40,094 nt of DNA. Origin: a virus. The position numbers and the translations under genes are program-made. Below are positions 1 to 40,094 of this stretch, piece by piece. The stretch lies in the IMG/VR virus record IMGVR_UViG_3300045988_174260. One strand, given 5' to 3'. The notes beneath the pieces were generated by a model that worked only from the letters and a program-made list of their open reading frames with translations, ran no database searches and had not been told where the DNA came from. Position 1 is the first letter of the stretch. Each line of letters begins with the position of its first letter.

Positions 1-157
1 TTTTCTTCTCCATTGTTGTATCGGTTTTCTTCTCCATTGTTGTATCGGTTTTCTTCTTCATTGTTGTATCGGTTTTCTTCTCCATTGTTGTATCGGTTTT
101 CTTCTTCATTGTTGTATCGGTTTTCTTCTCCATTGTTGTATCGGTTTTCTTCTTCAT
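1..157. repeat. 24-bp tandem direct repeat with 6 full units plus a 13-nt partial unit. Consensus is TTTTCTTCTYCATTGTTGTATCGG, and position 10 is C or T in the pattern C,C,T,C,T,C,T.
   Basis: Read directly. Units lie at 1-24, 25-48, 49-72, 73-96, 97-120 and 121-144, with the partial unit at 145-157. There are no spacers between units. The array continues from the right end of the window. Confidence 0.97.
1..157 (-). CDS. N-terminal part of the octapeptide-repeat protein. The ORF starts at ATG 157-155 and continues across the circular junction into 40039..39771.
   Basis: The minus-strand frame through the 24-bp array is open and reads MKKKTDTT MEKKTDTT MKKKTDTT MEKKTDTT MKKKTDTT MEKKTDTT MEKK-. 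The ATG at 157-155 overlaps the TGA of the upstream micropeptide ORF (ATGA). Confidence 0.6.
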   Translation of the reverse strand, partial: MKKKTDTTMEKKTDTTMKKKTDTTMEKKTDTTMKKKTDTTMEKKTDTTMEKK

Positions 158-249
158 AGGCCGATTGCGTATAAAAAACTAATCCAAATTATTGCACCAG
201 CAATTAAAACAATTAAATCTTCTATTTTTTCTTTTATTTTTTTATTCAT
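154..249 (-). CDS. Unannotated 31-aa micropeptide, MNKKIKEKIEDLIVLIAGAIIWISFLYAIGL. It has a charged N-terminus followed by one predicted transmembrane helix.
   Basis: Hand translation of the minus strand. Its ATG (249-247) overlaps the TGA of the amidoligase ORF (ATGA). Its TGA (156-154) overlaps the ATG of the repeat protein (ATGA). It falls below the 60-aa cut-off of the ORF track. Confidence 0.5.
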   Translation of the reverse strand: MNKKIKEKIEDLIVLIAGAIIWISFLYAIGL

Positions 250-1496
250 ATATTTTCGAGTAATTTATATAATTCTTTTGTCATACATTTTTCTCTTAGA
301 AAAGATATATATTTCGGAGCAATCTCCTTTAATTCTAATAATGATATTTCTCTATTCTCCATCGCGAAGAGATAAGTAAAGTAGCAAAAATCTACTATTG
401 TTTTAATCCTTTCTTTTTTGACTGTTCCCTTGCCCCTCCTAAATTCTATTGTGGCATTATTACTGAAATTTAATTCACAATACCTATTATTCGAAATTTT
501 ATCAAAGAGGAGCTTTTGGCCTTTTGGGGATGCAGAAATAGGGTGGACGCCGTATTGTTTTAGCTCACAAACACCCGGAATTGTGAAACAGTATTGATTG
601 TTATCTCTTCCAAATATTTTATTAACCAGTTCGTAAGAAAGAGAGTAAAAACATTTTTTCAGCAAAAGTTCTACACTTCTTTCACACTTGATTCGTGAAA
701 CGTGAACATGTAGCCCCGTTTCTTTAGTTGATTGAGAATAAGAGCCGAATAACGGGAAAAATTCTTCGCATAGCAAATCAATAGCTCCATTTTTTTTCAA
801 CAATGATTCAATAGGCAAAGGTCGGGTAGTTAGTTCTGTTCCTCCTCTTTCGTCACGTAAGGAGCCGTCATGCTGGAAGTAAAAAAAATTAGAAAACTTA
901 TTGTAAATAGAACGGTTTTGGTGATAAAATTCTATTTCCAACCCTACAAGGGGAGCTTTTAGGGTTGAGTTTTCAGGGATCCAACCATGAGGCCGAAAGT
1001 GGTATCCGTTCATTTTTGTTTCTATCAAGTCTTTTTCCGAAAAATCACTTATAAGGAACTCCTTTGTGCTTAAATATCTCAAAGCCGGGAAGACATGCTC
1101 TATTATATAACTCCACTCTTTTTCCGGGATTTGTTTTAAAGTGAAGGCATCTAAGAAGCACTTAAAGATTTTTATAAAATCACTAGAGTATTTTTGTTTT
1201 TGGTTTAGCTCTTTGTCGGGAACTGGAATTATTGTTTGAGAAAAAAAATTACACATTGCCCATAGAGTTGCGTTCCTTATCAATTTAAAATTTTTTTTCT
1301 CAAGCACAATCCCGTTTAAATCTTTAACTCCTGCAAACCGCAAAAAAGCGGTTGCTTTTCTCCTTCTTAAATACAAGTCCTTTGCTTGTTGCGTCTTGTA
1401 GCCAAAATCAAAAATTTTATTTTCACAAAACAAATAGTAATTCTCTCTTACAAATTGTTTCAGAAATTCTACTTTATCTTTTTCTTTTTTATTCAT
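246..1496 (-). CDS. Amidoligase_2-type (glutamine-synthetase/GCS2-like) COOH-NH2 ligase with an unknown N-terminal domain of about 180 aa.
   Basis: The C-terminal half carries the ordered motifs GLEIEF, DGSLRDERGGTELTTRP, GLHVHVS, NRYCELN and ATIEFRRGKGT. These match my recollection of the Amidoligase_2 (PF12224) signature: GxExE, ExxS/TxP, GxHVH, RYxxxN, EFR. Confidence 0.72.
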   Translation of the reverse strand: MNKKEKDKVEFLKQFVRENYYLFCENKIFDFGYKTQQAKDLYLRRRKATAFLRFAGVKDLNGIVLEKKNFKLIRNATLWAMCNFFSQTIIPVPDKELNQKQKYSSDFIKIFKCFLDAFTLKQIPEKEWSYIIEHVFPALRYLSTKEFLISDFSEKDLIETKMNGYHFRPHGWIPENSTLKAPLVGLEIEFYHQNRSIYNKFSNFFYFQHDGSLRDERGGTELTTRPLPIESLLKKNGAIDLLCEEFFPLFGSYSQSTKETGLHVHVSRIKCERSVELLLKKCFYSLSYELVNKIFGRDNNQYCFTIPGVCELKQYGVHPISASPKGQKLLFDKISNNRYCELNFSNNATIEFRRGKGTVKKERIKTIVDFCYFTYLFAMENREISLLELKEIAPKYISFLREKCMTKELYKLLENI

Positions 1497-1497
1497 G

Positions 1498-2070
1498 TCA
1501 AATAATGATTCGGAGGTTTTCGTTTTTAGTATTCAGACCTGAATAAGTTTTCCATATGTCTCCAATAATTGAATTAGAATCGTGCAGTTTATAAAAGATA
1601 TTTTCGCTCAAATTCACCAACAACCCTTTTTTTTGTAAAATAATCCCACATTTTTTATAGTATTTTAGAGCTAAAAATTTGTTTGAAGAAAAGGCCCTAG
1701 TGATTGGATAGCTACTATTTAGTTTTTTTTCCTCATATTCGGGGAAATGGCCTAGGGTCGGTTTTGTTTTAAAACGGGCAGATGATAGCGGTTTAACCCC
1801 AACAATATAAACACCGGCGTTTTTTTTCCCGCCAGAAGTCCTAAGAACCGGCAAATAACCTAAAGTGTTTCCAAAAACAAAAATAGGGCTGATAAGCGTT
1901 TTTTGAGTTGTACCGGTATCTAAATTTTCTATTTTCGCGAAAAAATAAACGCTAATAAAGGATTGTAGGTCTCTAATTACAGAGCAATCATCTTGAGCGT
2001 GAATGGTTCCAGAATAAGCGGGAATTCTGCTTTTCGCGGTCCTGTATAGTTTTATTGAGTATTTATGCAT
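1498..2070 (-). CDS. Hypothetical protein (190 aa).
   Basis: Long ORF in a tightly packed minus-strand operon. There is 1 nt between its stop and the next start. No motif recognised. Confidence 0.6.
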   Translation of the reverse strand: MHKYSIKLYRTAKSRIPAYSGTIHAQDDCSVIRDLQSFISVYFFAKIENLDTGTTQKTLISPIFVFGNTLGYLPVLRTSGGKKNAGVYIVGVKPLSSARFKTKPTLGHFPEYEEKKLNSSYPITRAFSSNKFLALKYYKKCGIILQKKGLLVNLSENIFYKLHDSNSIIGDIWKTYSGLNTKNENLRIII

Positions 2071-2082
2071 GTTTTTTTAGAG

Positions 2083-2499
2083 TTATTCCCCGTAAAGGAA
2101 TTTTTTTGTGTTTAAAATTTCACCTTTATATGAAATTTTAAAATCTTTATTTTTCTCTACGCATAAGTGCGCATGAAGGAAAGCTTGCTCTTTTGTTAGT
2201 TTTATTGTTCGTGAGGGCAGGAACATAAATTTTTCTTCTAAAGCTTTATGCCAAATTTCATTTATTTCTCCAAATATCACTATTCCGAGACAAGGATAAT
2301 GTGCTTTTTCTTTGATTTGTATTTTTCTGTTTTTTTGCAAAATAAGAATTAGGCCTTTCTCTGTTTTTTTTAGTTCTTTAATTATTGTTACAACAGATAA
2401 AACGCTTCTTTTATTTTCTTTTAAAAAAATAATGATATGTGTTTTTTTTATTATTATTTTTTTTGAAGCATCTATAATGTTTTGAATTTCAACATTCAT
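2083..2499 (-). CDS. Hypothetical protein (138 aa).
   Basis: ORF in the same operon with AT-rich codon usage consistent with its neighbours. Confidence 0.55.
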   Translation of the reverse strand: MNVEIQNIIDASKKIIIKKTHIIIFLKENKRSVLSVVTIIKELKKTEKGLILILQKNRKIQIKEKAHYPCLGIVIFGEINEIWHKALEEKFMFLPSRTIKLTKEQAFLHAHLCVEKNKDFKISYKGEILNTKKFLYGE

Positions 2500-2782
2500 C
2501 GAGCGTCAAGGTTTTGAAGTTAAATCTATATTCTAATCCGTCCTTTAAAGGAGCCTTCCTAAAATCGCTCAATAAGTCTCCTTCGGGGCGGTTTTCTAGG
2601 CGAAAAATGAGCTTTCGAGGTTTTTTGGAGACGTCAAAAACCTCAATAATTGAGCCTAATCTCCAATCAGCTTTTATCATGCGGTGAAAGGTTCTAAGCC
2701 CGTGTGAAAAATTTAAATAAAGAACAGGGCAAACACGCCTTTCTTCTTGAGGGTTTTCAAACTCAAATTCAAAAACTTTCAT
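2489..2782 (-). CDS. Hypothetical protein (97 aa).
   Basis: ORF overlapping the downstream gene by 11 nt, which is typical operon packing. Confidence 0.55.
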   Translation of the reverse strand: MKVFEFEFENPQEERRVCPVLYLNFSHGLRTFHRMIKADWRLGSIIEVFDVSKKPRKLIFRLENRPEGDLLSDFRKAPLKDGLEYRFNFKTLTLDEC

Positions 2783-2786
2783 AGCT

Positions 2787-3134
2787 TCAAAAATATGCGA
2801 GATTATAAAAAATTAAATTTTCAAAAGGTGTTATCTTGTGCCATTTTATATAAATTCCAACTATTTCCGTTTTTGGTTCAAAGTGGTAATTATAAATAAA
2901 TTCCTTAAAATATTTATCTTCTTTCTTTTTTATTATTTCTATAGCATTAAATCTGATGCCGTTTAGCAAATCTATTAGTATTTTTTGTTCCAAAACGTTG
3001 GATAAGTTTTTTTTAAGCTGATATATTCGCCCTTGTTTTTCAAGGCTGATTTTTCCTTTTAGCTTTAAGTCTGTGTCTTTTCCTAAAAAATAGGCGACGG
3101 CTCCAAAATTTGTTGTATAATCAATAGAACTCAT
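2787..3134 (-). CDS. Hypothetical protein (115 aa).
   Basis: ORF in the operon. No motif recognised. Confidence 0.55.
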   Translation of the reverse strand: MSSIDYTTNFGAVAYFLGKDTDLKLKGKISLEKQGRIYQLKKNLSNVLEQKILIDLLNGIRFNAIEIIKKKEDKYFKEFIYNYHFEPKTEIVGIYIKWHKITPFENLIFYNLAYF

Positions 3135-3414
3135 ATTCCCTTTTCAAAAAAAACATATTGCTATAGTTAACGTCATAAAACAGTGAATTTCTTTTTTTCA
3201 AAATCTCTTCAAAGGATGATTTGCTTCTTTTTTGCTCTTCTATCATTGCGGATTCAGGGAAGGCATGAGCAAAATCAATATGCGCTTCGAGGTTTGGCAA
3301 TTCCTCCCCCGTTACTGGTCCTGCAAAGATAAAATAAATATTAGCGCGAACGAAAACAAAATACTTATCTTCTCTCTTTTTTTTAAAAACTTTCACAATA
3401 TGTTTAGCGTCCAT
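3121..3414 (-). CDS. Hypothetical protein (97 aa).
   Basis: ORF in the operon, overlapping the downstream gene by 14 nt. Confidence 0.55.
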   Translation of the reverse strand: MDAKHIVKVFKKKREDKYFVFVRANIYFIFAGPVTGEELPNLEAHIDFAHAFPESAMIEEQKRSKSSFEEILKKRNSLFYDVNYSNMFFLKREYEFY

Positions 3415-3446
3415 TAAGTGCGAAATTTACATGGTTAAAAAATTCT

Positions 3447-3593
3447 TCAGGCGATAAAAAAGTAAAGATAGTCTCGTAAGTCTTCTGCCTCCGTTACTAA
3501 TTCCAAAGCGTATTGTTTTACGCCTTTTTTCCATTTAGTTCGGGCGGGGCTTTTCAATATTTTTTTATTACTTCTTCTCTGTTGTTTTTTCAT
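3447..3593 (-). CDS. Unannotated small basic protein (48 aa): MKKQQRRSNKKILKSPARTKWKKGVKQYALELVTEAEDLRDYLYFFIA.
   Basis: Hand translation. Its ATG lies 1 nt downstream of the stop of the 3595..3834 ORF. It fills an otherwise empty 180-nt gap in a dense operon. Confidence 0.4.
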   Translation of the reverse strand: MKKQQRRSNKKILKSPARTKWKKGVKQYALELVTEAEDLRDYLYFFIA

Positions 3594-3594
3594 T

Positions 3595-3834
3595 TTATTT
3601 TATTCTTTTCTTCATGCCTTTTACTAACTCGCTCGCCCGTTTAGAGACGTTATCCTTAGTTCCTACGACAAAGGTTTGCCAACCGCAATTCATGCACCCG
3701 TATTCATAACTTCCCTTAGGGTTCTGCAATGTCTCATAAACCAAAACGTCCATCGGAAGCCGGCAAAATGGGCATCGCAACTTTTTAAATTTCTCTTGTT
3801 TCTTTTTTCCCATGTTTTTTGTTTTTTCTCTCAA
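3595..3834 (-). CDS. Small zinc-ribbon protein and first gene of the leftward operon. Possible nucleic-acid-binding regulator.
   Basis: Two Cys pairs, CPFC and CMNC, are spaced about 26 aa apart. Both termini are basic. Confidence 0.6.
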   Translation of the reverse strand: MREKTKNMGKKKQEKFKKLRCPFCRLPMDVLVYETLQNPKGSYEYGCMNCGWQTFVVGTKDNVSKRASELVKGMKKRIK

Positions 3835-3877
3835 GGGGTCTTTCTCTATTCTTCCTTCCGTCCCCTTTCATGTTTTT

Positions 3878-3905
3878 ATTCTATCTTTTTTCCCTCATAA
3901 GTCAA
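3878..3905 (-). promoter_or_regulatory. Sigma70-like promoter candidate for the leftward operon: TTGACT-N16-TAGAAT on the minus strand.
   Basis: The reverse complement of 3900-3905 is TTGACT and that of 3878-3883 is TAGAAT. The spacer is 16 nt. It lies about 45 nt upstream of ATG 3834. Relevance depends on the host, which may not use sigma70-type consensus promoters. Confidence 0.3.
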
Positions 3906-3975
3906 CAACTTTTATTTCTTTTTTTCTCAATTAGCAAGTTTTTTTCTCTCTCCCTCTAACCTCTTGTCAAACTGG

Positions 3976-4055
3976 TTTTTCCTCTTTCTCTTCCCTCCTC
4001 TTCCCTCCTCTTTCGCCTCCCTCCTCCCTCGGGGGGGGGCCTTTAGGGGGGGGGG
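3976..4055. repeat. Low-complexity, structure-prone tract. A 55-nt polypyrimidine run (one purine) contains TTCCCTCCTC twice. It is followed directly by G9, CCTTTA and G10.
   Basis: Read directly. 3976-4030 is all C/T except g4014. G9 is at 4031-4039 and G10 at 4046-4055. Confidence 0.9.
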
Positions 4056-4939
4056 CTACTCCTAACTCCATCGGATTTCTCCATCCTTTTTCTCGTTGCG
4101 GGTTCTTACCTCTTCCCGCTCCTCTTCGCTCTCTTGACCTTTCCATCGGTCAGGAGGGCGTAAGGGGGGATAAGCGGGGGAGTTAAACCCCGGCCGGGAC
4201 GAACCAGTTTGCCCTCTTCCTTAAAAATGGTTTCTCCCATAGTGGACCCTCTTTTGCCATTTTTACGTGTTTTTTTAGGCGGATCCGTCATAAGTAGCAA
4301 ACTGTTAGAGGCTAGCGAATTTTAAGAAAACCTGTGTTCCTAGGGCTTGCCAAAAATCGGGTTTTGTGCATGTTTCATGTTTATTTTCTCTAGATTGTCT
4401 CGCTCTTGAGTGTTTTTTTTGTAGAGCCTCGGCGATTCGGTGCGTGCTTTGAGCGGCCTTCAAACTGGCTCAAAAGCGTACCGATTCCGTTGCATTTGGG
4501 TGCCTTCTGCCTGCTTCTGCTTGTGTGCGCACCGACAATCTTCATAACTCGTTGACTGTCTATCATACTTCGCATAACACACATAATGCCAAATAGGGCA
4601 CATTTGAGGACAATCCCGAATATCGCGCTACAATGGGCCTAGCGCGCGCCGCATATCTGCCATGAGTAATGTATAGGCCCATCCTCTAAAAAGCCCGTGT
4701 GCGCAATCCTCGCAAGCCGTTTTTCGGGCAAATCGTAGTAATTAGAATAATTATTGAGGTTTTGCCCACTTTAGGCCATGTTGCGGCGTTGCTTCGGAGC
4801 CACCTAGCCATGAGGGACTGCAAGCCCGTCAGCACCGCACCACCCCTAGGTGCTTCTTGCTAGGACGTCCCTACAGGCGGGAGGCGGGGAAAAATCGCCG
4901 GGCGTTTCGCGCTGGACAAAGAAGGTATCACCCTGCATA

Positions 4940-5401
4940 ATGAGGGAAAAGGGAGAAGAGAAAGAGAAGAAAGAAATGGCGAGAAGAAGAGGAGACGTAG
5001 AGATGAACGTGAAATTAGTGAGAGAGTTGGTGGAAGAAGTGAGGGGGGAATTGGAGCGAGGGGAGGTGAGGACGGTAGAGGAGGCGTTATCGAAGCGAGG
5101 AGTGAGCCGGAAGCTGTTTAGGGAGATGGGGGGAATAGAGGAGTGGAAGGGAGAGAGGAGGAGAGGCGAGAGAGGAGGAGAGGAGCGGGAAGAGGAAGAG
5201 GAAATGGGGAAAGAGGAAATGGGGAAGTTTTTAAGTAGAGTGATAAGAGGGAGGGAGCTAGGGATGGGGGGAAAGGAGAAGATGAGTGCGGTAGGGTTGT
5301 ATATGAGGTTGAAGGGATGGGACAAGGTGAAAGAGGAGAGGGAGGAGCTGGTAGGAGAGGAGATGAGAGAGCTGCTGAAAAAAGACAAAGAAAAGAGTTG
5401 A
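4940..5401 (+). CDS. Highly charged E/R/K/G-rich protein (153 aa) with a possible helix-turn-helix.
   Basis: The ORF track gives 4850..5401. I moved the start to ATG 4940, where the purine-rich coding composition begins. A possible HTH is TVEEALSKRGVSRKLFRE. The frame choice is uncertain because stop codons are rare in all + frames here. Confidence 0.45.
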   Translation: MREKGEEKEKKEMARRRGDVEMNVKLVRELVEEVRGELERGEVRTVEEALSKRGVSRKLFREMGGIEEWKGERRRGERGGEEREEEEEMGKEEMGKFLSRVIRGRELGMGGKEKMSAVGLYMRLKGWDKVKEEREELVGEEMRELLKKDKEKS

Positions 5402-5436
5402 TGAAAGAGGAGGAGGAGAGATAAACTAAAGAGGAG

Positions 5437-6078
5437 ATGAGAAAAGGATTGGACGAAGTAAAGATAAGGAAAGAAGAGCTGGAACATGGCTTTTTGAGGG
5501 GGGTGAAGGAGATGGTGAGGCAGAAGGTGGAGATGGGGTTAATGCCATGGGGGCGGCGGGTATTTTATCCGAAGATGGTATTGAGGGCGAGGCCGCAGAA
5601 GTTGAGGGATTTTTTGATAGAGGAGGAGGTATGGGAGTTGCAGGAATGGAGCAAGGATTCATTGGAGAGCAATCCTGAGCGGCACCATTTGTACGAATGC
5701 GGAGGGAGGTATTATATGGGATTGTACTTTAAGAGTACGAGGGGGCGGAGCATAAGGAGGAAGCTAAGTTTAGGGACAAGGGAATTGGAAGAGGCGAAAG
5801 AGAGGAGGGACGAGTTTTATAAAGAGTGGAGAGGGAAGGGATTGAAATGGTATATGGCAGACGGGGCGAAATGGAATATGAAGTTACCGGGAGTGCCGGA
5901 GGTAGGAGAGTTGAGCAAATTAGACAAAAGGGCGCGGAAGGAGACGGAAGAGGCGGCGGTACAGGCGTTGAAGGAAGCGCGGGAGAGTTGGAAGAGGAGG
6001 AGGTGGGAGCAAGTGAGGAAGGAGGAGTATTGGGAGGCAGAGGAGAAGAGGAGCCGGAGTTTAAGGAAATGGAAATAG
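5437..6078 (+). CDS. Protein with an integrase Arm-type/AP2-like DNA-binding motif and an E/R/K-rich C-terminal helix. It has no recombinase catalytic domain.
   Basis: HHLYECGGRYYMGLYFKSTRGRSIRRKLSLGTRELEEAKERRDEF resembles the lambda Int N-terminal arm-binding pattern (LY..nGyY.yr...g....LG......A). The ORF is only 213 aa. Confidence 0.5.
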   Translation: MRKGLDEVKIRKEELEHGFLRGVKEMVRQKVEMGLMPWGRRVFYPKMVLRARPQKLRDFLIEEEVWELQEWSKDSLESNPERHHLYECGGRYYMGLYFKSTRGRSIRRKLSLGTRELEEAKERRDEFYKEWRGKGLKWYMADGAKWNMKLPGVPEVGELSKLDKRARKETEEAAVQALKEARESWKRRRWEQVRKEEYWEAEEKRSRSLRKWK

Positions 6079-6089
6079 GAGGTAAGGAG

Positions 6090-6287
6090 ATGGAAAAAGA
6101 AGTAGGAATAATGGTAAAGTTTGGGAAAGGAAAGGTAATGGAACTGCATTTGTTTCCGAACAAGGAGGCAATGAGGAAGTGGCGAGGAGAGGACAGCGAG
6201 CAAGACGCAGAGGGGGAGTACCGGGAGTGGAGCGTACCGTTGGAGGTGATAGAGGACTTATGGGCGGCGGCGATGGGAGAGGAATAA
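6090..6287 (+). CDS. Small hypothetical protein (65 aa).
   Basis: This is the distal part of track ORF 5826..6287. The proximal 250 nt overlap the 5437..6078 CDS in another frame. ATGs at 6069, 6090 and 6111 are all possible starts. Confidence 0.35.
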   Translation: MEKEVGIMVKFGKGKVMELHLFPNKEAMRKWRGEDSEQDAEGEYREWSVPLEVIEDLWAAAMGEE

Positions 6288-6311
6288 AAAATTAGAATAA
6301 TAATAAAAAGT

Positions 6312-6878
6312 ATGAAAATAATCGTAGACATAGGGCATGCGCGGAACACAGGAGCGCGAGGGAACGGGCTGGAAGAGCACGCAGTAAGCGAGGAGATAAG
6401 CAAAGAGTTGGTGAGGGAGTTAAAGGCGGCAGGGTATGAGGTAGTTGAGTTGGACTTTCCGCACCTTAGTAACGCGAAGGACTTGGAAGCGACGATAAAA
6501 GAGGCGAATCGGATGGGTTCGGATATAGGAATATCGTTGCACTGCGACAGTGCAAGTCATTGGGTAGGAGGGGAAGAAGAGGCGAACCCTAAGCCGCATG
6601 GAGGGCATGTGTGCTACTATCCTGGGAGCAGTAAGGGGAGGAAGTTGGCAGAGGCGGTAGGAGTGCGTCTTAGCGGGCTATTGCCTGGGCGAGCAGAGGC
6701 AGTGGTAGGGAGGAAGGACTTGGCGGTATTGAGGCGAACAAGGCCGGTATGGATATTGTGTGAGTGTGGATTTATAACGAATCCGGGAGATGCGGAGGTG
6801 ATGAGGGAGCATCCGGAGAAGATAGCGAGGGCGATAAGCGAAGGAGTGAAGGATTATTTGAAATATGCAAGAGATTGA
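6312..6878 (+). CDS. N-acetylmuramoyl-L-alanine amidase (Amidase_3-type), the endolysin.
   Basis: KIIVDIGHARNTGARG...EE, GISLHCDSA and WILCECGFITNPGDAEVM match the Amidase_3 pattern (iviDpGHGg.d.GA...E, fiSiH.Na, vLvE.GFisN..d). Confidence 0.8.
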   Translation: MKIIVDIGHARNTGARGNGLEEHAVSEEISKELVRELKAAGYEVVELDFPHLSNAKDLEATIKEANRMGSDIGISLHCDSASHWVGGEEEANPKPHGGHVCYYPGSSKGRKLAEAVGVRLSGLLPGRAEAVVGRKDLAVLRRTRPVWILCECGFITNPGDAEVMREHPEKIARAISEGVKDYLKYARD

Positions 6879-7356
6879 TAAAGAGGGAGTTGGAGAGCTT
6901 GTGCACAGCATTGCGCACGGGGACAAGTGGGAGGAGGTTGAGGACAGGAAGAGTTGTTGCGTATGGGTAATGAGGAGCAAGGACAAGTTTCTTGTGAGGG
7001 AGGGGGTATTAAAGAAATGGCCGAAAAGGGGCTGGAAGGGGCGAGCATTAAGCAAAGGAGGGAAATGCTATGCGCAATCGGCAGACAGCATATTGAAGGA
7101 GGCAGAGGTAGAATGGGAAAGGAAGCCGGAGTATGCGCACATGTACTATAGCGGGATGCTGGGAGGAAAGGCGGCGAAAGACGCGACGTGTTTTTTAGAG
7201 GAAGCCAGAGTATTTAAGATGCCATTGCCGAGGGGGAGGTATAACAGCGATGCGTGGGAGTTTGTAAGGTGCCGTCTTGTAGAGGAAGTGGTAGAGAAGC
7301 CGATGGACGACGAAATGGACATTTGGTTGAAGTACAGGAGGGACAAATGGTTTTAA
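6865..7356 (+). CDS. Hypothetical protein. Small terminase subunit candidate by position only.
   Basis: A 163-aa ORF immediately upstream of TerL. Its stop overlaps the TerL start region. No motif recognised. Confidence 0.35.
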   Translation: MQEIDKEGVGELVHSIAHGDKWEEVEDRKSCCVWVMRSKDKFLVREGVLKKWPKRGWKGRALSKGGKCYAQSADSILKEAEVEWERKPEYAHMYYSGMLGGKAAKDATCFLEEARVFKMPLPRGRYNSDAWEFVRCRLVEEVVEKPMDDEMDIWLKYRRDKWF

Positions 7357-8927
7357 GTGAAATAATAGAGTTGCTGAAAGACCCGATGTGGCGAATATCC
7401 CATTTGTATGAGATAAAATTGACGGATGGGAACATCATTCCTTATAAGCCGAGGAAGTTTCAGGAGGAGCTTCACAGGGCCTGTTACTGTGAGGGGAAGA
7501 GGAGGTTTTTAATACCTAAGAGTAGGCGGCAGGGTTGCTCTACGGCGATTGGAGTGATGATGGCTGACATGGCGGCGTTTGAGGAGGGGTGGAAGCTGGC
7601 TTTGGTGGACAGGACGTTAGGAGACGCGACGGAAAAGCTTACGGACATTGTGAGGGTAGCGTTGGACAGCTTGAAGAGGAAATTGCCTGGGATGTTCGAC
7701 ATAAGTTACAGCAAATCAAAGATAAACGTTAAGATGGTAGGAAGGAGGTCGAGCGAGATAGTTGGGGGTAAATATTTTCGAGGCAGTGGTCTTGGATTTG
7801 CGCACATATCCGAGCTTGGTACGATTGCGACCAGTGAGCCGAAGCGAGCTGCTGAAATCGTCAACGGCACATTCCCTGCGGCTAAGGATGGCTTTATCTT
7901 TGTGGAGACGACCGTACGAGGGGGGAAGCGAGGGGTATTCTATGAGAACGTGATGAATGCGCTAAGCGTGCCGGAGGGGAAGCGAGGTGAGAAAGATTTC
8001 CATGTAGTGTTTTTGCCGTGGTGGAGCGACGAGAATAATATATCGGAGGGGGTGGAGGAGATAACGCCAGCTACGGAGAGCTACTTTGAGACGCTTAGGA
8101 GCAAGAGCGGGATTGTCGTGACGGAGGCGCAAAAGAGGTGGTGGCAACAGGCCAAGCGGCAACATGGCGTATCAATGAATGAAGAGTACCCGTCCACCTT
8201 GGAAGAGGCTTTTGAGGTCCCTATGGAGGGGGCTATCTTGGAGGCGGTGTTGGACAGGGCCATGCAGGAGGGGGCTTTCAGGAACTTGGTTTACGATAAA
8301 ACGAAGCCGTGTTATTGCACATGGGATTTGGGTGCGCCCCTGAATACGATTAACCTTGTGTTTCAGTTGGACGGCCCCTTTATTAACGTCCTTGAGCTGG
8401 ACAGTGGTTTGCATGCGAGCGAGCGCGTAGCAGAGCGTGTAACGAGGCTTAAAAGCAAATATCCGACCTTACAGGCGAACTTCCTTCCGCATGACGGCGG
8501 GTATATGACGGACACAGGGATGACACAGGCGCAAATGTGGCAGGAGGCAGGGTTGCCGGGCATCCAGTTGTTGCCCAAATCGAAAGACAAATGGATTGGC
8601 ATCAATTACCTTTTAGGGATGTTCAACATGTTTCGGTTTGACACCAACGGTACGAGCAAAGCGTACAGTTACTGGTTGTCCTACAGGTGCAAGCCGGAGG
8701 TGGGAGAGGGAGGCGTGTTTAAGAATGAGATTGTACATGACAACGCATCCCATTGGGCAGACCCGTTGAGGTATGTTGCAGAGGCGAGGATGAACAACCT
8801 GTTGACGGCAGGAGTTGTAACGCAGGACAGCAAAGCCGGGATAACCTGTACCTTTGGGAAATATCATCGTGAGCAAAATGTTGGACATAACTGGCGGCGG
8901 GGGTTTGAGCATACTTGCCGCATCTGA
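7347..8927 (+). CDS. terL: Terminase large subunit (526 aa).
   Basis: PKSRRQGCST is a terminase-type Walker A-like motif (K.RQ.G.S/T). GFAHISE is Walker B-like. The C-terminal half has nuclease-like acidic motifs (CTWDLG, PHDGG, HWADPLRY). It sits just upstream of the portal. I moved the start from 7254 to ATG 7347, which overlaps the end of the upstream ORF. Confidence 0.85.
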   Translation: MVLSEIIELLKDPMWRISHLYEIKLTDGNIIPYKPRKFQEELHRACYCEGKRRFLIPKSRRQGCSTAIGVMMADMAAFEEGWKLALVDRTLGDATEKLTDIVRVALDSLKRKLPGMFDISYSKSKINVKMVGRRSSEIVGGKYFRGSGLGFAHISELGTIATSEPKRAAEIVNGTFPAAKDGFIFVETTVRGGKRGVFYENVMNALSVPEGKRGEKDFHVVFLPWWSDENNISEGVEEITPATESYFETLRSKSGIVVTEAQKRWWQQAKRQHGVSMNEEYPSTLEEAFEVPMEGAILEAVLDRAMQEGAFRNLVYDKTKPCYCTWDLGAPLNTINLVFQLDGPFINVLELDSGLHASERVAERVTRLKSKYPTLQANFLPHDGGYMTDTGMTQAQMWQEAGLPGIQLLPKSKDKWIGINYLLGMFNMFRFDTNGTSKAYSYWLSYRCKPEVGEGGVFKNEIVHDNASHWADPLRYVAEARMNNLLTAGVVTQDSKAGITCTFGKYHREQNVGHNWRRGFEHTCRI

Positions 8928-37909: not shown

Positions 37910-38326
37910 ATGACAGGTGACATGTCTATAAATAGCCGCATGCAGAAAGAACTACCACAAGAACAACTGTCGGCATTTTCTAAGTTTGCAGTCCAGAACG
38001 AAGAGTTGTGCAAGCTCATGATGCAAAGAGTGGGATTCAAAATCACTCCAATGGTTTGGAACAAAGCGAAATGGAATCCGGCTCAAATGTCTGTCAAAAA
38101 GCTCACCCACCTCCGCGCCTTTTATCCTGCGGCATTTGGGTTAGAGGATGAGCCTAATAGCGATTTTTTGAAGTCTCTGTACTACCTCCACATTTCCAAC
38201 AGAATACTTTCAGGAGAAATTGAACCTCTTATTGAAGATAAGGATTTTGCGACCTATATGCCTTACGCCCATTTTGTTTTACCGATAGACGATTTTACAA
38301 AAAACGCCCTTTCTAAATTCATGTAA
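37910..38326 (+). CDS. Hypothetical protein (138 aa), possibly a replication initiation partner by position.
   Basis: The track ORF is 37823..38326. I moved the start to ATG 37910 to clear the divergent 37002..37880 gene. It lies upstream of the DnaC-like ATPase. Confidence 0.45.
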   Translation: MTGDMSINSRMQKELPQEQLSAFSKFAVQNEELCKLMMQRVGFKITPMVWNKAKWNPAQMSVKKLTHLRAFYPAAFGLEDEPNSDFLKSLYYLHISNRILSGEIEPLIEDKDFATYMPYAHFVLPIDDFTKNALSKFM

Positions 38327-38335
38327 AAAACGAAA

Positions 38336-38968
38336 ATGAACTATCCACTTGACGACTATCCGCTAGAAGAAATGGAACGAAAATCTGTTCCGAGGTTGGT
38401 AAAAGACATTTTAGATTTAGACCAATTATTGAAAGGGTTAGATAAAATACCGCTAACAAGTGAAGAAGAAAAGGAAGAGTGGAGAAGGAAGGAAAAAGAG
38501 AAAGAAAGGGTGAAAGGCTGGGAAAAACGGCTAAAAGAATCAGGCGTTCCTTTAGCGTTTTACCAAGCTTGCGTTCAAAAAAAAATCGTTCAATGCAAGC
38601 TTTTCCCGGGGATGAATCAAGTAAAAGCTCGTAGCTGGTTTTTTGCCTCTTCGAAGAAAGGGAAAACCTTTTCCGCTTGCAACCTAATTGCGAAAGAATT
38701 GTGGGAGGGAAGAAGAGGGTTGTATTTAAAGGCCGTCGACCTAGAAAGAGAATTATCAAGTTTTCGTCCTCAAGAAGAACTCTTAAGGAAATATCAAAGA
38801 GTACCTTTTCTTGTAGTGGACGATTTTGAAGGAATGCGGATGAGTGTGAATTCATCCTGCAATTTTATAGCATTCCTCAAAAAAAGAAACGATTCCGGAT
38901 TGTGCTCTTTTATTATAATGAGAGAACGTACTTTTTTTGCGGAACAGATAGAACGGGCGACTACTTGA
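38336..38968 (+). CDS. DnaC/IstB-like AAA+ ATPase, a putative helicase loader.
   Basis: Walker A is ASSKKGKT (AxxxxGKT) and Walker B is FLVVDDFE. The 210-aa size fits. Confidence 0.55.
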   Translation: MNYPLDDYPLEEMERKSVPRLVKDILDLDQLLKGLDKIPLTSEEEKEEWRRKEKEKERVKGWEKRLKESGVPLAFYQACVQKKIVQCKLFPGMNQVKARSWFFASSKKGKTFSACNLIAKELWEGRRGLYLKAVDLERELSSFRPQEELLRKYQRVPFLVVDDFEGMRMSVNSSCNFIAFLKKRNDSGLCSFIIMRERTFFAEQIERATT

Positions 38969-39008
38969 GCAAAACAATAAGTAACACGGAATAAGATTGT
39001 TATAAAAA

Positions 39009-39041
39009 AGCCCTGTAGCCATTTTCGTAGGCTACAGGGCT
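39009..39041 (-). terminator. Intrinsic terminator for the leftward (amidoligase/GATase) operon. It may act weakly in both directions.
   Basis: AGCCCTGTAGCC (39009-39020) pairs with GGCTACAGGGCT (39030-39041) as a 12-bp perfect stem with a 9-nt loop. On the minus strand the stem is followed by TTTTTTATA. Confidence 0.8.
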
Positions 39042-39065
39042 TGAATGCCGGATTTTTATGACAGA

Positions 39066-39755
39066 CTATTGCACTCTCTTTTCAGGTATTAAAACGTTAT
39101 TTAATGAATAGTATTTTTTTGTATAGTGATATTTTTTAGAATACTTTGAATAACCTAAATTGTGATTGTAGTAAAGTTCATCTCCATACGATGAACAAGT
39201 GTATTTAGCATTATACTTTAGATAAGAAGAGTTAGAGAAATAGGCAAATTTATTTTTATCTGGTCTTTGAAAATCGCCATAAAAAAGCATCTCTCCTTTT
39301 TTCCAAAATACAAATTTATTTGAGCCGAGGACGGCATTAACCATGTTGTCTATATCGTCATTGTTTTCCTGGATGCAATACTCACCAAAAGCTGGCAAAA
39401 ATAGGTATCGGAAAAAAGTTTCGCTATCTGTTAGATCGTCTTTGTTTTTAATGCTCAAGATTCCATTATGGCAAAAGTACCAGCCATTTCCATTCCAGCC
39501 ATGAACGTTTTTTTCTGAAATTGAGCCATGCGTTTTGATGCGAGCATGCAAGAGGACAACATAATCTTTTGGGATTGTGTTCCACAAATTAACAATTTCT
39601 TTTTTTAAAAGGGTACGAATAAAATATTCTGGCTTTTCTTGGCATGTACCTCTTTTAAATGCGGCTAAAAAGAAGCCGTCAGGGTTGTTTGTGATGCAAT
39701 TTTGAAAATGTTGATTGCCAATATCTTTTTTGATTCCGTACGCGATAATACACAT
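39066..39755 (-). CDS. YafJ-type class-II glutamine amidotransferase-like Cys-Ntn amidohydrolase.
   Basis: The N-terminus is Met-Cys (MCIIAYG). The motifs LLHARIKTHG, NVHGW, FCHNGIL and LTDSETFFRY line up by eye with E. coli YafJ (AHIRQANRG, THPF, AHNGQL, ETDSEKAF, recalled from memory). Confidence 0.78.
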   Translation of the reverse strand: MCIIAYGIKKDIGNQHFQNCITNNPDGFFLAAFKRGTCQEKPEYFIRTLLKKEIVNLWNTIPKDYVVLLHARIKTHGSISEKNVHGWNGNGWYFCHNGILSIKNKDDLTDSETFFRYLFLPAFGEYCIQENNDDIDNMVNAVLGSNKFVFWKKGEMLFYGDFQRPDKNKFAYFSNSSYLKYNAKYTCSSYGDELYYNHNLGYSKYSKKYHYTKKYYSLNNVLIPEKRVQ

Positions 39756-39770
39756 ATTGTTTTTTCTAGT

Positions 39771-40094
39771 TTAGTTTTTTCCGTATTTATCAATGATAGA
39801 TTTAACGCCTAGAGTTAATTCTAGGGCTAATTTTTCTTCTTCTTGTGTTTCGTAAAATATTTTTATGAAAGTATATTGCCATTGAGGTGAATATGACATT
39901 TTCATGCCTTTTTTGATTAAATAGTTTATGACGTCCTGCCTTATCTTTCCAAATGTTTCTGCTGATAGTGTTTTTTTGTAAACATTTACAAATTCAATGT
40001 TTAAACTGCCAACCAAGGAAGAGATGCAACACTCTAGCTTTTTCTTCTCCATTGTTGTATCGGTTTTCTTCTCCATTGTTGTATCGGTTTTCTT
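39771..40094 (-). CDS. Body of the octapeptide-repeat protein. The reconstructed circular ORF is 39771..40039 plus 1..157, about 141 aa. No recognisable domain.
   Basis: The ORF track gives 39771..40076. The frame stays open to the window edge (KKTDTT precedes Met 40076). The C-terminal roughly 90 aa are non-repetitive (KLECCISSLVGSLNIEF...). Confidence 0.65.
   Translation of the reverse strand, partial: KKTDTTMEKKTDTTMEKKKLECCISSLVGSLNIEFVNVYKKTLSAETFGKIRQDVINYLIKKGMKMSYSPQWQYTFIKIFYETQEEEKLALELTLGVKSIIDKYGKN
40040..40094. repeat. Exact 55-nt copy of window positions 1-55. This is a terminal overlap of a circularly closed contig.
   Basis: 40040-40094 compared base by base with 1-55: identical. 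The window ends before the next position can be compared (position 56 is c). Confidence 0.95.

Follow-up and report, generated by a model that had tools for sequence, protein, structure and literature searches.

The four-gene cassette and its two enzymes

The window analysed here, a stretch of 40,094 nucleotides given by the IMG/VR virus record IMGVR_UViG_3300045988_174260, carries a cassette of four open reading frames (ORFs) at the distal end of an AT-rich leftward operon made of small genes. All four lie on the minus strand and encode, in order, a 416-aa ligase (246..1496), a 31-aa micropeptide predicted to span the membrane once (154..249), a 141-aa small protein whose gene runs across the two ends of the window (157..1 joined to 40039..39771), and a 229-aa amidohydrolase (39066..39755). 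The coordinates and close packing described in an original prediction, which had been made from the letters and their translations, were reproduced: the ligase stop overlaps the micropeptide start and the micropeptide stop overlaps the small-protein start, in both cases as ATGA, and 15 nt separate the small-protein stop from the hydrolase start. Such start/stop overlaps suggest co-translation, as far as gene layout can indicate. Our analysis placed the ligase and the hydrolase, with high confidence, as divergent members of the Amidoligase_2 and GATase_4 families, the latter being class II glutamine amidotransferase (GATase)-like enzymes.

On its own, the 416-aa protein stays below the Pfam gathering cut-off for Amidoligase_2 (PF12224; 14.9 bits against 22, E = 0.025), and the 229-aa protein does the same for GATase_4 (PF13230; 17.7 bits against 23, E = 0.0017). 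The Pfam matches that had been expected were thus sub-threshold for the window proteins alone but carried by their homologues, and for this reason both enzyme identities rest on homologue profiles and structure. PF12224 was matched by 49 of the 81 wider relatives of the ligase at E ≤ 0.001 (best E = 5.6e-12) and by seven of ten close relatives at E ≤ 0.01, and the window ligase matched the PHROG amidoligase families 7469 and 2443 (E ~5e-6). The clade ligase profile retrieved 10,149 representatives at E ≤ 1e-3 from 1.84 billion proteins (50% clustering). The catalytic domain occupies approximately residues 150-416 and is preceded by a helical, clade-specific region of ~150 residues. Across the 81 sequences G185, E187, E189, D210, S212, G219, E221, G261, H263, H265 and R297 were invariant, as were T349, E351, F352 and R353, and the five motifs quoted in support of the first ligase assignment were all present on invariant columns of the family alignment. 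By analogy with glutamine synthetase (GS), the ExE, E, HxH, R and ExR series would represent the metal- and ATP-binding motifs.

The AlphaFold model of the ligase, built from the 81-sequence alignment, had a predicted local distance difference test (pLDDT) score of 95 and a predicted template modelling (pTM) score of 0.92. When this model was compared with the PDB by Foldseek, every significant match was a GS, YbdK/GCS2, GmaS, 1-naphthylamine GS, GCL or PafA structure (probability 0.9-1.0, E from 4e-4), with PafA at rank 40 (E = 0.039). Against BFVD, 51 viral models matched at E ≤ 1e-3, down to 3e-11, and most of the named ones were 'amidoligase' proteins, including that of Pseudomonas phage tf. 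The ligase profile found nothing meaningful among PDB sequences, the fold having come from the structure search, and tblastn of the ligase against 50,697 GenBank phage records returned no match. Given this GS/GCS2 fold and the conserved set of acidic, His and Arg residues, the 416-aa protein is predicted to be an ATP-dependent carboxylate-amine ligase that would act through an acyl-phosphate. Residues 333-411 of the ligase (window 246-500) also weakly matched the PADLOC candidate defence model PDC-S58 (E = 1.6e-4), a match from which it follows that amidoligase-like proteins occur in candidate anti-phage systems as well.

The 229-aa protein starts with MCIIAYG, with a Cys straight after the initiator Met, and was assigned from Cys2 and its homologue profiles as a standalone class II (N-terminal nucleophile, Ntn) GATase-like amidohydrolase of the YafJ/EgtC type, in line with the first assignment. 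Its homologues number more than 253, and many of them, at 33-43% identity, carry PF13230. Of 32 aligned homologues, 30 have C2 and the remaining two are without the first ~8 residues. The other conserved motifs are H70-A-R72-I-x-T-H-G, H96-N97-G98 and D107-x-T-D110-S-E, in which R72, N97, G98 and D110-S-E are invariant. Searched against the PDB, the family profile matched the standalone class II GATase 3mdn (1.8e-7), GlmS 1xff (2e-4) and 1te5 (1.7e-3), and in these alignments HARIKTHG aligned with HTRWATHG and HNG with HNG. A comparison with the GlmS N-terminal domain by hhalign gave a probability of 88% (E = 2.9e-6), in which R72 pairs with GlmS Arg73 and N97-G98 with Asn98-Gly99. In GlmS, Arg73 binds the α-carboxylate of glutamine and Asn98-Gly99 forms the oxyanion hole; the TDSE motif probably supplies the equivalent of Asp123, which binds the α-amino group. 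Because these GlmS-type pocket residues are kept, the hydrolase looks fit for glutamine or a γ-glutamyl group with free α-amino and α-carboxyl groups rather than for general peptidase activity. No synthase domain is fused to it; the conserved region extends to about residue 178, beyond which lies a variable tail. One relative (P0070) weakly matched the EgtC and GlmS models of NCBIfam, and tblastn of the GATase against GenBank phages gave three weak matches only.

Small genes between the enzymes and their distribution

A set of 35 loci was collected, starting from the ligase, from the hydrolase or from pattern scans, and their ORFs were searched with the ligase, hydrolase and small-protein profiles. 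The ligase was followed by the GATase in 24 of the 24 loci with enough flank (window included), whether the locus had been found via the ligase or via the GATase, which bears out the co-conservation of the two enzymes. Distant phages have no gene between the two, which abut or overlap, as in seven loci of 41-98 kb (L010-L013, L029, L030 and L033) and in the cultured OM43 phage MEP402, where the GATase overlaps the upstream 548-aa gene. Among 150 family representatives there was no fusion of ligase and GATase. The expectation that small ORFs would be conserved between the enzymes was correct for all members of the window's own clade and failed for the distant relatives; to judge from the loci compared, the micropeptide and the ~100-aa small protein are restricted to one clade of ~40-kb phages. 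Throughout this clade the order of 190-aa protein, ligase, micropeptide, small protein and hydrolase is constant, with ligase identity down to 38-43%.

Two of the other loci have arrangements of their own. L029, a 48-kb IMG/VR contig, carries ligase, GATase, ligase and GATase in tandem (4647-8500), which suggests duplication and diversification of the module. A scan of genome contigs found a single relative, the Bacteroidales metagenome-assembled genome contig WFMA01000206.1 (L034), in which a 100-aa ORF and a 39-aa hydrophobic ORF stand between the ligase (30% identity) and the GATase (4821-5714). These two ORFs have no sequence relation to the small proteins of the window and may represent an independent insertion of small genes into the pair. 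L034 is also the sole hint, and a weak one, at Bacteroidales as host.

The micropeptide consists of a basic N-terminus followed by a C-terminal hydrophobic segment of 19-20 residues ending in YAIGL. An ORF of 31-38 aa occupies this position in every clade locus that reaches it, and although three sequence types exist, all of them end in (Y/F)A(I/L)G(L/F), with a mean Kyte-Doolittle hydropathy of 2.5-2.7 over the best 19 residues. Searches of Pfam, PHROG and PADLOC returned no family match for the micropeptide.

The gene of the small protein lies at the closure of a circular contig. The first 55 nt of the window are identical to the last 55 nt, the segment 40040..40094 being an exact duplicate of positions 1-55; this is an assembler overlap marking circular closure inside a tandem repeat, as the repeat unit found by Tandem Repeats Finder (TRF) is identical at both ends. 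Since the terminal 55 nt are duplicated, the circle measures 40,039 bp. The 5' part of the gene (1..157, minus strand) is a 24-nt tandem array encoding M(K/E)KKTDTT octapeptides, and the 3' part (39771..40039, minus strand) encodes the last repeat units and a conserved α/β core of ~90 residues; joined, they form an uninterrupted in-frame ORF of 141 codons. In ~40-kb contigs of relatives that were cut differently (L002, L005 and L025), the ligase, micropeptide, small protein and GATase are contiguous, and because these contigs were cut independently, the join across the window ends is genuine, as had been proposed. The earlier count of about seven octapeptides was close: six are full (MKKKTDTT or MEKKTDTT) and a seventh is partial (TRF period 24, 6.5 copies, 96% matches, score 293).

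The core carries the motif LECCISSL...FIKIFYET.EEEKLAL...IIDKYGKN, with 23 positions invariant across the clade. Only 11 homologues of the small protein were found in 5.8 billion proteins, all of them from this clade, and there was nothing above noise in Pfam, PHROG, PADLOC or NCBIfam and no sequence match in the PDB. AlphaFold modelled the small protein with an overall pLDDT of 63, approximately 70-82 in the core and below 50 in the tail, the latter value being consistent with disorder. A Foldseek search of this model against the PDB gave no significant match (best E 0.66). A partial match of the small protein to a GS chain (E = 1.1) was taken as noise. In a Rosetta-stone test, the small-protein profile showed no link to any of the ligase and GATase homologues or to any ORF of the loci.

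In contrast to the core, the N-terminal tail is hypervariable. It ranges from 5 to 53 residues, with units of four or eight residues whose sequence differs between genomes: the window's subclade has one to six octapeptide units (MKKKTDTT, MKEKTNKP, MKEKTEPT or MKKKTEPT), the other subclade has one to ten tetrapeptide units (MKEQ, KKEQ or KKEP), and the tails of L001, L031 and P0283 are essentially repeat-free. The C-termini also vary (GKN, GKK, NKQ, ENQ, KNQ or KKQ). The original prediction had seen in the repeat a supply of carboxylates and amines for the ligase; because tail length and unit vary and three members are essentially without the repeat, it is unlikely to be an obligatory substrate. 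We infer that the Lys/Glu-rich repeat forms a disordered tail that is prone to slippage and can be dispensed with. Non-coding iterons were considered as another explanation of the array and found unlikely, since the repeat units of both subclades, of 24 and 12 nt, span whole codons; the array also begins at the ATGA overlap, and the Lys/Glu-rich frame is kept while the unit sequence changes. An opposite-strand ORF of 48 aa (MLYRFSSPLLYRFSSS...; window 13-159, plus strand) is a reverse-frame reading of the tandem repeat and not a gene.

The repeat is a recurrent breakpoint of assemblies: at least eight related contigs end ~100-200 nt after the ligase, and others start just before the small-protein core. 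Such breaks were seen at the 3' ends of L003, L004, L014, L016, L018, L021, L023 and L026 and at the 5' ends of L007, L009 and L015, and clade contigs classed as 'complete circular' often have their cut precisely at the Lys/Glu-rich repeat. As the window contig closes inside the array, where related contigs also break, its repeat copy number is uncertain, and the copy numbers of the repeat in databases are probably underestimates.

Setting of the cassette in the phage genome

The replicon is, on its gene content, a podovirus-like phage of ~40 kb. The window encodes a T7-type head-tail connector (E = 2e-49), a Phage_capsid_2 major capsid protein and an Amidase_3 endolysin, and further genes encode a PD-(D/E)XK/DUF2800 nuclease and a RuvC-like resolvase. 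Megablast with half of the window found no close phage relative in GenBank, and no Rfam family was matched in the window.

An intrinsic terminator (39002..39042, minus strand) closes the leftward operon after the hydrolase gene, as the original prediction had noted. It has a GC-rich stem of 13 bp, a loop of 9 nt and a U6 tail, and folds at -25.3 kcal/mol (z = -6.33), with none of 200 shuffled sequences being as stable. A simple terminator scan missed it, probably since the 9-nt loop exceeds the 3-8-nt limit of that scan. Beyond the terminator lies a convergent 210-aa gene on the opposite strand. At the other end of the cassette, a 190-aa protein of no assigned role (1498..2070, minus strand) has its stop 1 nt from the ligase start. 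A gene of 190-191 aa holds this position also in L001, L002, L003, L004, L005, L006, L008 and L014, and distant phages lack it ahead of the ligase; it may be a fifth member of the module, specific to the clade. Pfam, PHROG, PADLOC, NCBIfam and the PDB gave no match for the 190-aa protein.

The leftward operon is presumably expressed early. Within it, a 79-aa zinc-ribbon protein (3595-3834, minus strand) weakly matched the PHROG 'Lar-like restriction alleviation protein' (E = 0.004), which is consistent with an early, host-takeover or anti-defence region. The GC content of the leftward operon, including the cassette (1-3600 and 38000-40094), is 26-36%, against 44-56% in the rightward lysis and structural module (4000-30000), and the G-over-C skew is unusually strong at 4800-7600 (0.36-0.76). 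This split could stem from a mosaic origin or from a strand- or expression-specific bias. Between the operon and the GC-rich rightward module, about 1 kb (3835-4845) contains no ORF of at least 75 aa and is flanked by short G/A-rich tandem arrays (3988-4030 and 5137-5226). In L001 and L002, comparable gene-free stretches of ~1.2 kb are present 2.3-3.1 kb upstream of the ligase. The stretch at 3835-4845 may be a regulatory or origin region.

Proposed function and comparison with known systems

Considering the above results, we propose that the cassette is a clade-specific elaboration of a widespread phage pair of Amidoligase_2 and GATase_4 enzymes which forms and cleaves γ-glutamyl-type amides, and we give this reading a probability of roughly 0.55. 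The γ-glutamyl-type chemistry, drawn by analogy, is held with that same limited confidence. A γ-glutamyl amide on an amine acceptor appears the most likely product because of the fold neighbours of the ligase, the pocket of its partner and a change of partner in Firmicutes, whose prophages pair a PHROG-2443 amidoligase with a γ-glutamyl cyclotransferase (PMC11318856). Furthermore, one phage has been described with genes for a GATase, an amidoligase, a glutathione-synthase-like protein and a γ-glutamylcyclotransferase (PMC10945688). With respect to the fold, we infer that every solved neighbour of the ligase activates the γ-carboxylate of glutamate, be it free Glu or that at the C-terminus of Pup.

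In the proposed model, the ligase would attach a γ-glutamyl group to an amine acceptor and the hydrolase would cleave the resulting amide; the acceptor might be a polyamine, a protein lysine or an amine of the envelope or peptidoglycan. The system would be expressed early and possibly act at the membrane, with the micropeptide as an accessory subunit for membrane localisation and the ~100-aa protein as an adaptor or regulator. As distant phages have the pair but neither small protein, the two small proteins are unlikely to be universal substrates. The predicted membrane segment of the micropeptide gives a hint of a site of action at the membrane or envelope, in agreement with the cell-wall modification or superinfection-exclusion role that later papers attribute to Iyer et al. 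(2009) and propose for the phiEco32 pair.

Several points weigh against this model. A writer and an eraser without an intermediate enzyme would make a futile cycle unless the two were separated in time, space or substrate, and the intact glutaminase residues of the hydrolase are equally compatible with the delivery of ammonia to the ligase. The template modelling (TM) scores between the ligase model and solved GS and YbdK structures were low in Foldseek, at ~0.3, despite probabilities of 1.0. The GlmS alignments of the hydrolase end before Asp123, and the equivalence of D110 in TDSE is motif-based. Membrane association of the system is deduced from the 31-aa ORF alone, and the searchable literature yielded no biochemical data for any PF12224 and GATase_4 pair.

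The cassette might also not be one unit. The micropeptide and the small protein would then be passengers, for example a superinfection-exclusion peptide and a regulator, that were inserted in one lineage, and the enzymes would work as they do elsewhere. The occurrence of the small genes in a single clade, the rarity of small-protein homologues in the databases and the abutting enzymes of other phages all suit passengers. So does the tight packing of every gene of the operon, and for that very reason packing alone defines no unit. However, both small genes are present in the same order in every clade member in spite of the divergence of the ligases, the start/stop overlaps suggest co-translation, and L034 has an analogous arrangement. 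We therefore consider passengers possible but rather unlikely, and a functional link between the small proteins and the enzymes is somewhat favoured.

The main rival to the proposed function, though an unlikely one, is a two-subunit glutamine-dependent amidotransferase, in which the GATase would free ammonia and the ligase would amidate an ATP-activated carboxylate, such as peptidoglycan D-isoglutamate or meso-diaminopimelate or another envelope carboxylate, with an outcome like that of MurT/GatD or AsnB. The hydrolase retains the class II glutaminase residues (the equivalents of Cys1, Arg73 and Asn98-Gly99), the strict adjacency and often overlapping genes of the pair are typical of complex subunits, and GS-fold enzymes are generally known to take ammonia natively as nucleophile. 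The membrane micropeptide would also fit an envelope target, as would the role in cell-wall modification or superinfection exclusion that the later papers mentioned above propose for the phiEco32 pair. On the other hand, the γ-glutamyl cyclotransferase that takes the partner position in Firmicutes cannot supply ammonia (PMC11318856). Characterised standalone enzymes of the YafJ/EgtC type are, as generally known and in keeping with the weak EgtC profile match, γ-glutamyl amidohydrolases and not ammonia donors, and no GS-fold enzyme is known to us that receives ammonia channelled from a GATase. None of the 150 family representatives was a fusion of the supposed subunits, and in the window's clade two genes lie between them.

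The original prediction had pointed to the logic of Pup, PafA and Dop, that is, to protein or peptide tagging in which the ligase forms isopeptide bonds on or with the small protein and the Ntn hydrolase reverses them. The ligase does belong to the fold superfamily of PafA, a clade-conserved and translationally coupled small protein with a disordered Lys/Glu-rich tail does stand between the enzymes, and L034 likewise holds two, although unrelated, small ORFs there. This logic nevertheless fared badly. PafA appeared only at rank 40 and the hydrolase is of the Ntn type rather than a PafA paralogue; the C-terminus of the small protein is not conserved and has no GGQ/GGE-like end, which leaves a Pup-like tag unsupported. 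In distant phages the enzymes adjoin directly with no small ORF between, some clade members have tails of only 5-16 residues, and that of L031 contains a single Lys. The hydrolase pocket suits a glutamyl group with free α-amino and α-carboxyl groups and not an internal peptide bond, and neither fusions nor profiles link the small protein to any ligase or GATase homologue. We regard a tagging cycle as improbable, and hold out little prospect for the small protein as substrate or tag. It is just as hard to favour the broader idea that the clade acquired dedicated partners, with a membrane-tethered ligase that would reversibly γ-glutamylate or isopeptide-link the small protein, or use it as an adaptor or tag for the host envelope. 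The slippage-prone Lys/Glu-rich tail would in that case tune the number of acceptor or donor sites, and such a system, if real, would be a new type of phage-encoded reversible protein modification.

Finally, DNA base hypermodification, in which the enzymes would tailor an amino-acid-derived group on phage DNA, is very improbable: amidoligase and glutaminotransferase Pfam domains are co-associated with 5-HMUDK and aGPT-Pplase clusters in viral metagenomes (Lee et al., PMC8989533) and the cassette belongs to an early operon with recombination and replication genes close by, but Pfam and PHROGs searches of 37 window proteins, which very divergent versions could escape, found no 5-hydroxymethyldeoxyuridine kinase, aGPT-Pplase, deoxyuridine monophosphate hydroxymethylase, TET/JBP, pyridoxal-phosphate or radical S-adenosylmethionine enzyme, and a membrane micropeptide is ill-suited to a DNA target.

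Among cellular systems, the proposed γ-glutamyl chemistry can be compared with several that combine a ligase with a second enzyme. Pup/PafA/Dop resembles the cassette in the GS-like fold of PafA and in the concept of a small protein, a ligase and a reversing enzyme. In that system, however, Dop is a paralogue of PafA, whereas the window pairs one GS-fold gene with an Ntn hydrolase, and unlike Pup, the small protein of the window combines a folded core with a tail that varies at the N-terminus, without a C-terminal GGQ/GGE or a link to a proteasome. MurT/GatD (PMC3267633) is alike in having separate ligase and glutaminase subunits side by side and an envelope carboxylate as target, but MurT is built on the Mur-ligase fold and GatD belongs to the class I GATases, so that both folds differ from those of the window.

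The chemistry proposed here follows the logic of GmaS with the N-methylglutamate synthase MgsA, and of PuuA with PuuD, in which a GS-like ligase makes the γ-glutamyl amide of an amine and a GATase-like subunit cleaves it later; GmaS and 1-naphthylamine GS were among the fold matches of the ligase. These systems differ in their intermediate processing enzymes and their place in cellular metabolism, and PuuD is a class I GATase. The EgtA/EgtC enzymes of mycobacterial ergothioneine synthesis join a γ-glutamylcysteine ligase of the GS/GCS2 fold with a short standalone Ntn hydrolase of the GATase_4/6 type that keeps the glutamine pocket. In their logic a γ-glutamyl group is added and later removed; on the side of the window, the hydrolase relative weakly matched EgtC, and YbdK/GCS2 is among the top folds of the ligase. 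The window is unlike them in having no EgtB- or EgtD-like enzymes, a remote similarity and a phage early operon as setting, and the relation is one of analogy and not of membership.

The nearest counterpart is the phage pair itself, and the idea that the module of ligase and GATase is new could not be upheld. The pair was reportedly predicted computationally by Iyer and co-workers in 2009 (Mol Biosyst 5:1636), and the Pfam description of PF12224 mentions a conserved neighbourhood with a GATase-like thiol hydrolase. It is annotated in LUZ24-like phages, tf, UFV-P2, phiEco32, the OM43 phages MEP401 and MEP402, mycobacteriophage Marvin and others, PF12224 and the GATase having been reported in the OM43 phages (PMC10580990). 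With more than 10,000 ligase representatives, it is among the commoner functionally uncharacterised enzyme modules of phages, and the roles proposed for it since 2009 comprise cell-wall modification, auxiliary metabolism and DNA hypermodification. The window shares with these phages the two families, their order (ligase then GATase) and an early or replication-proximal position. It differs in its divergent enzymes, sub-threshold in Pfam alone, in the two genes between them and in the 190-aa gene upstream; the ATP-grasp or COOH-NH2_lig partner of LUZ24-like phages was not detected among the window proteins scanned.

What is already known is therefore the enzyme pair, long predicted and widely annotated in phages. 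New here are a very divergent branch of both enzymes, two clade-specific genes between them, possibly with a third upstream, and a hypervariable Lys/Glu-rich tail. If the small protein were not a substrate or adaptor, the cassette would be one more divergent member of the family; if it were, it would give the first handle on the role of the family as a whole. Compared with the pair in other phages, the co-conserved small proteins of this clade offer concrete candidates for interaction partners or substrates, together with a hint at membrane localisation.

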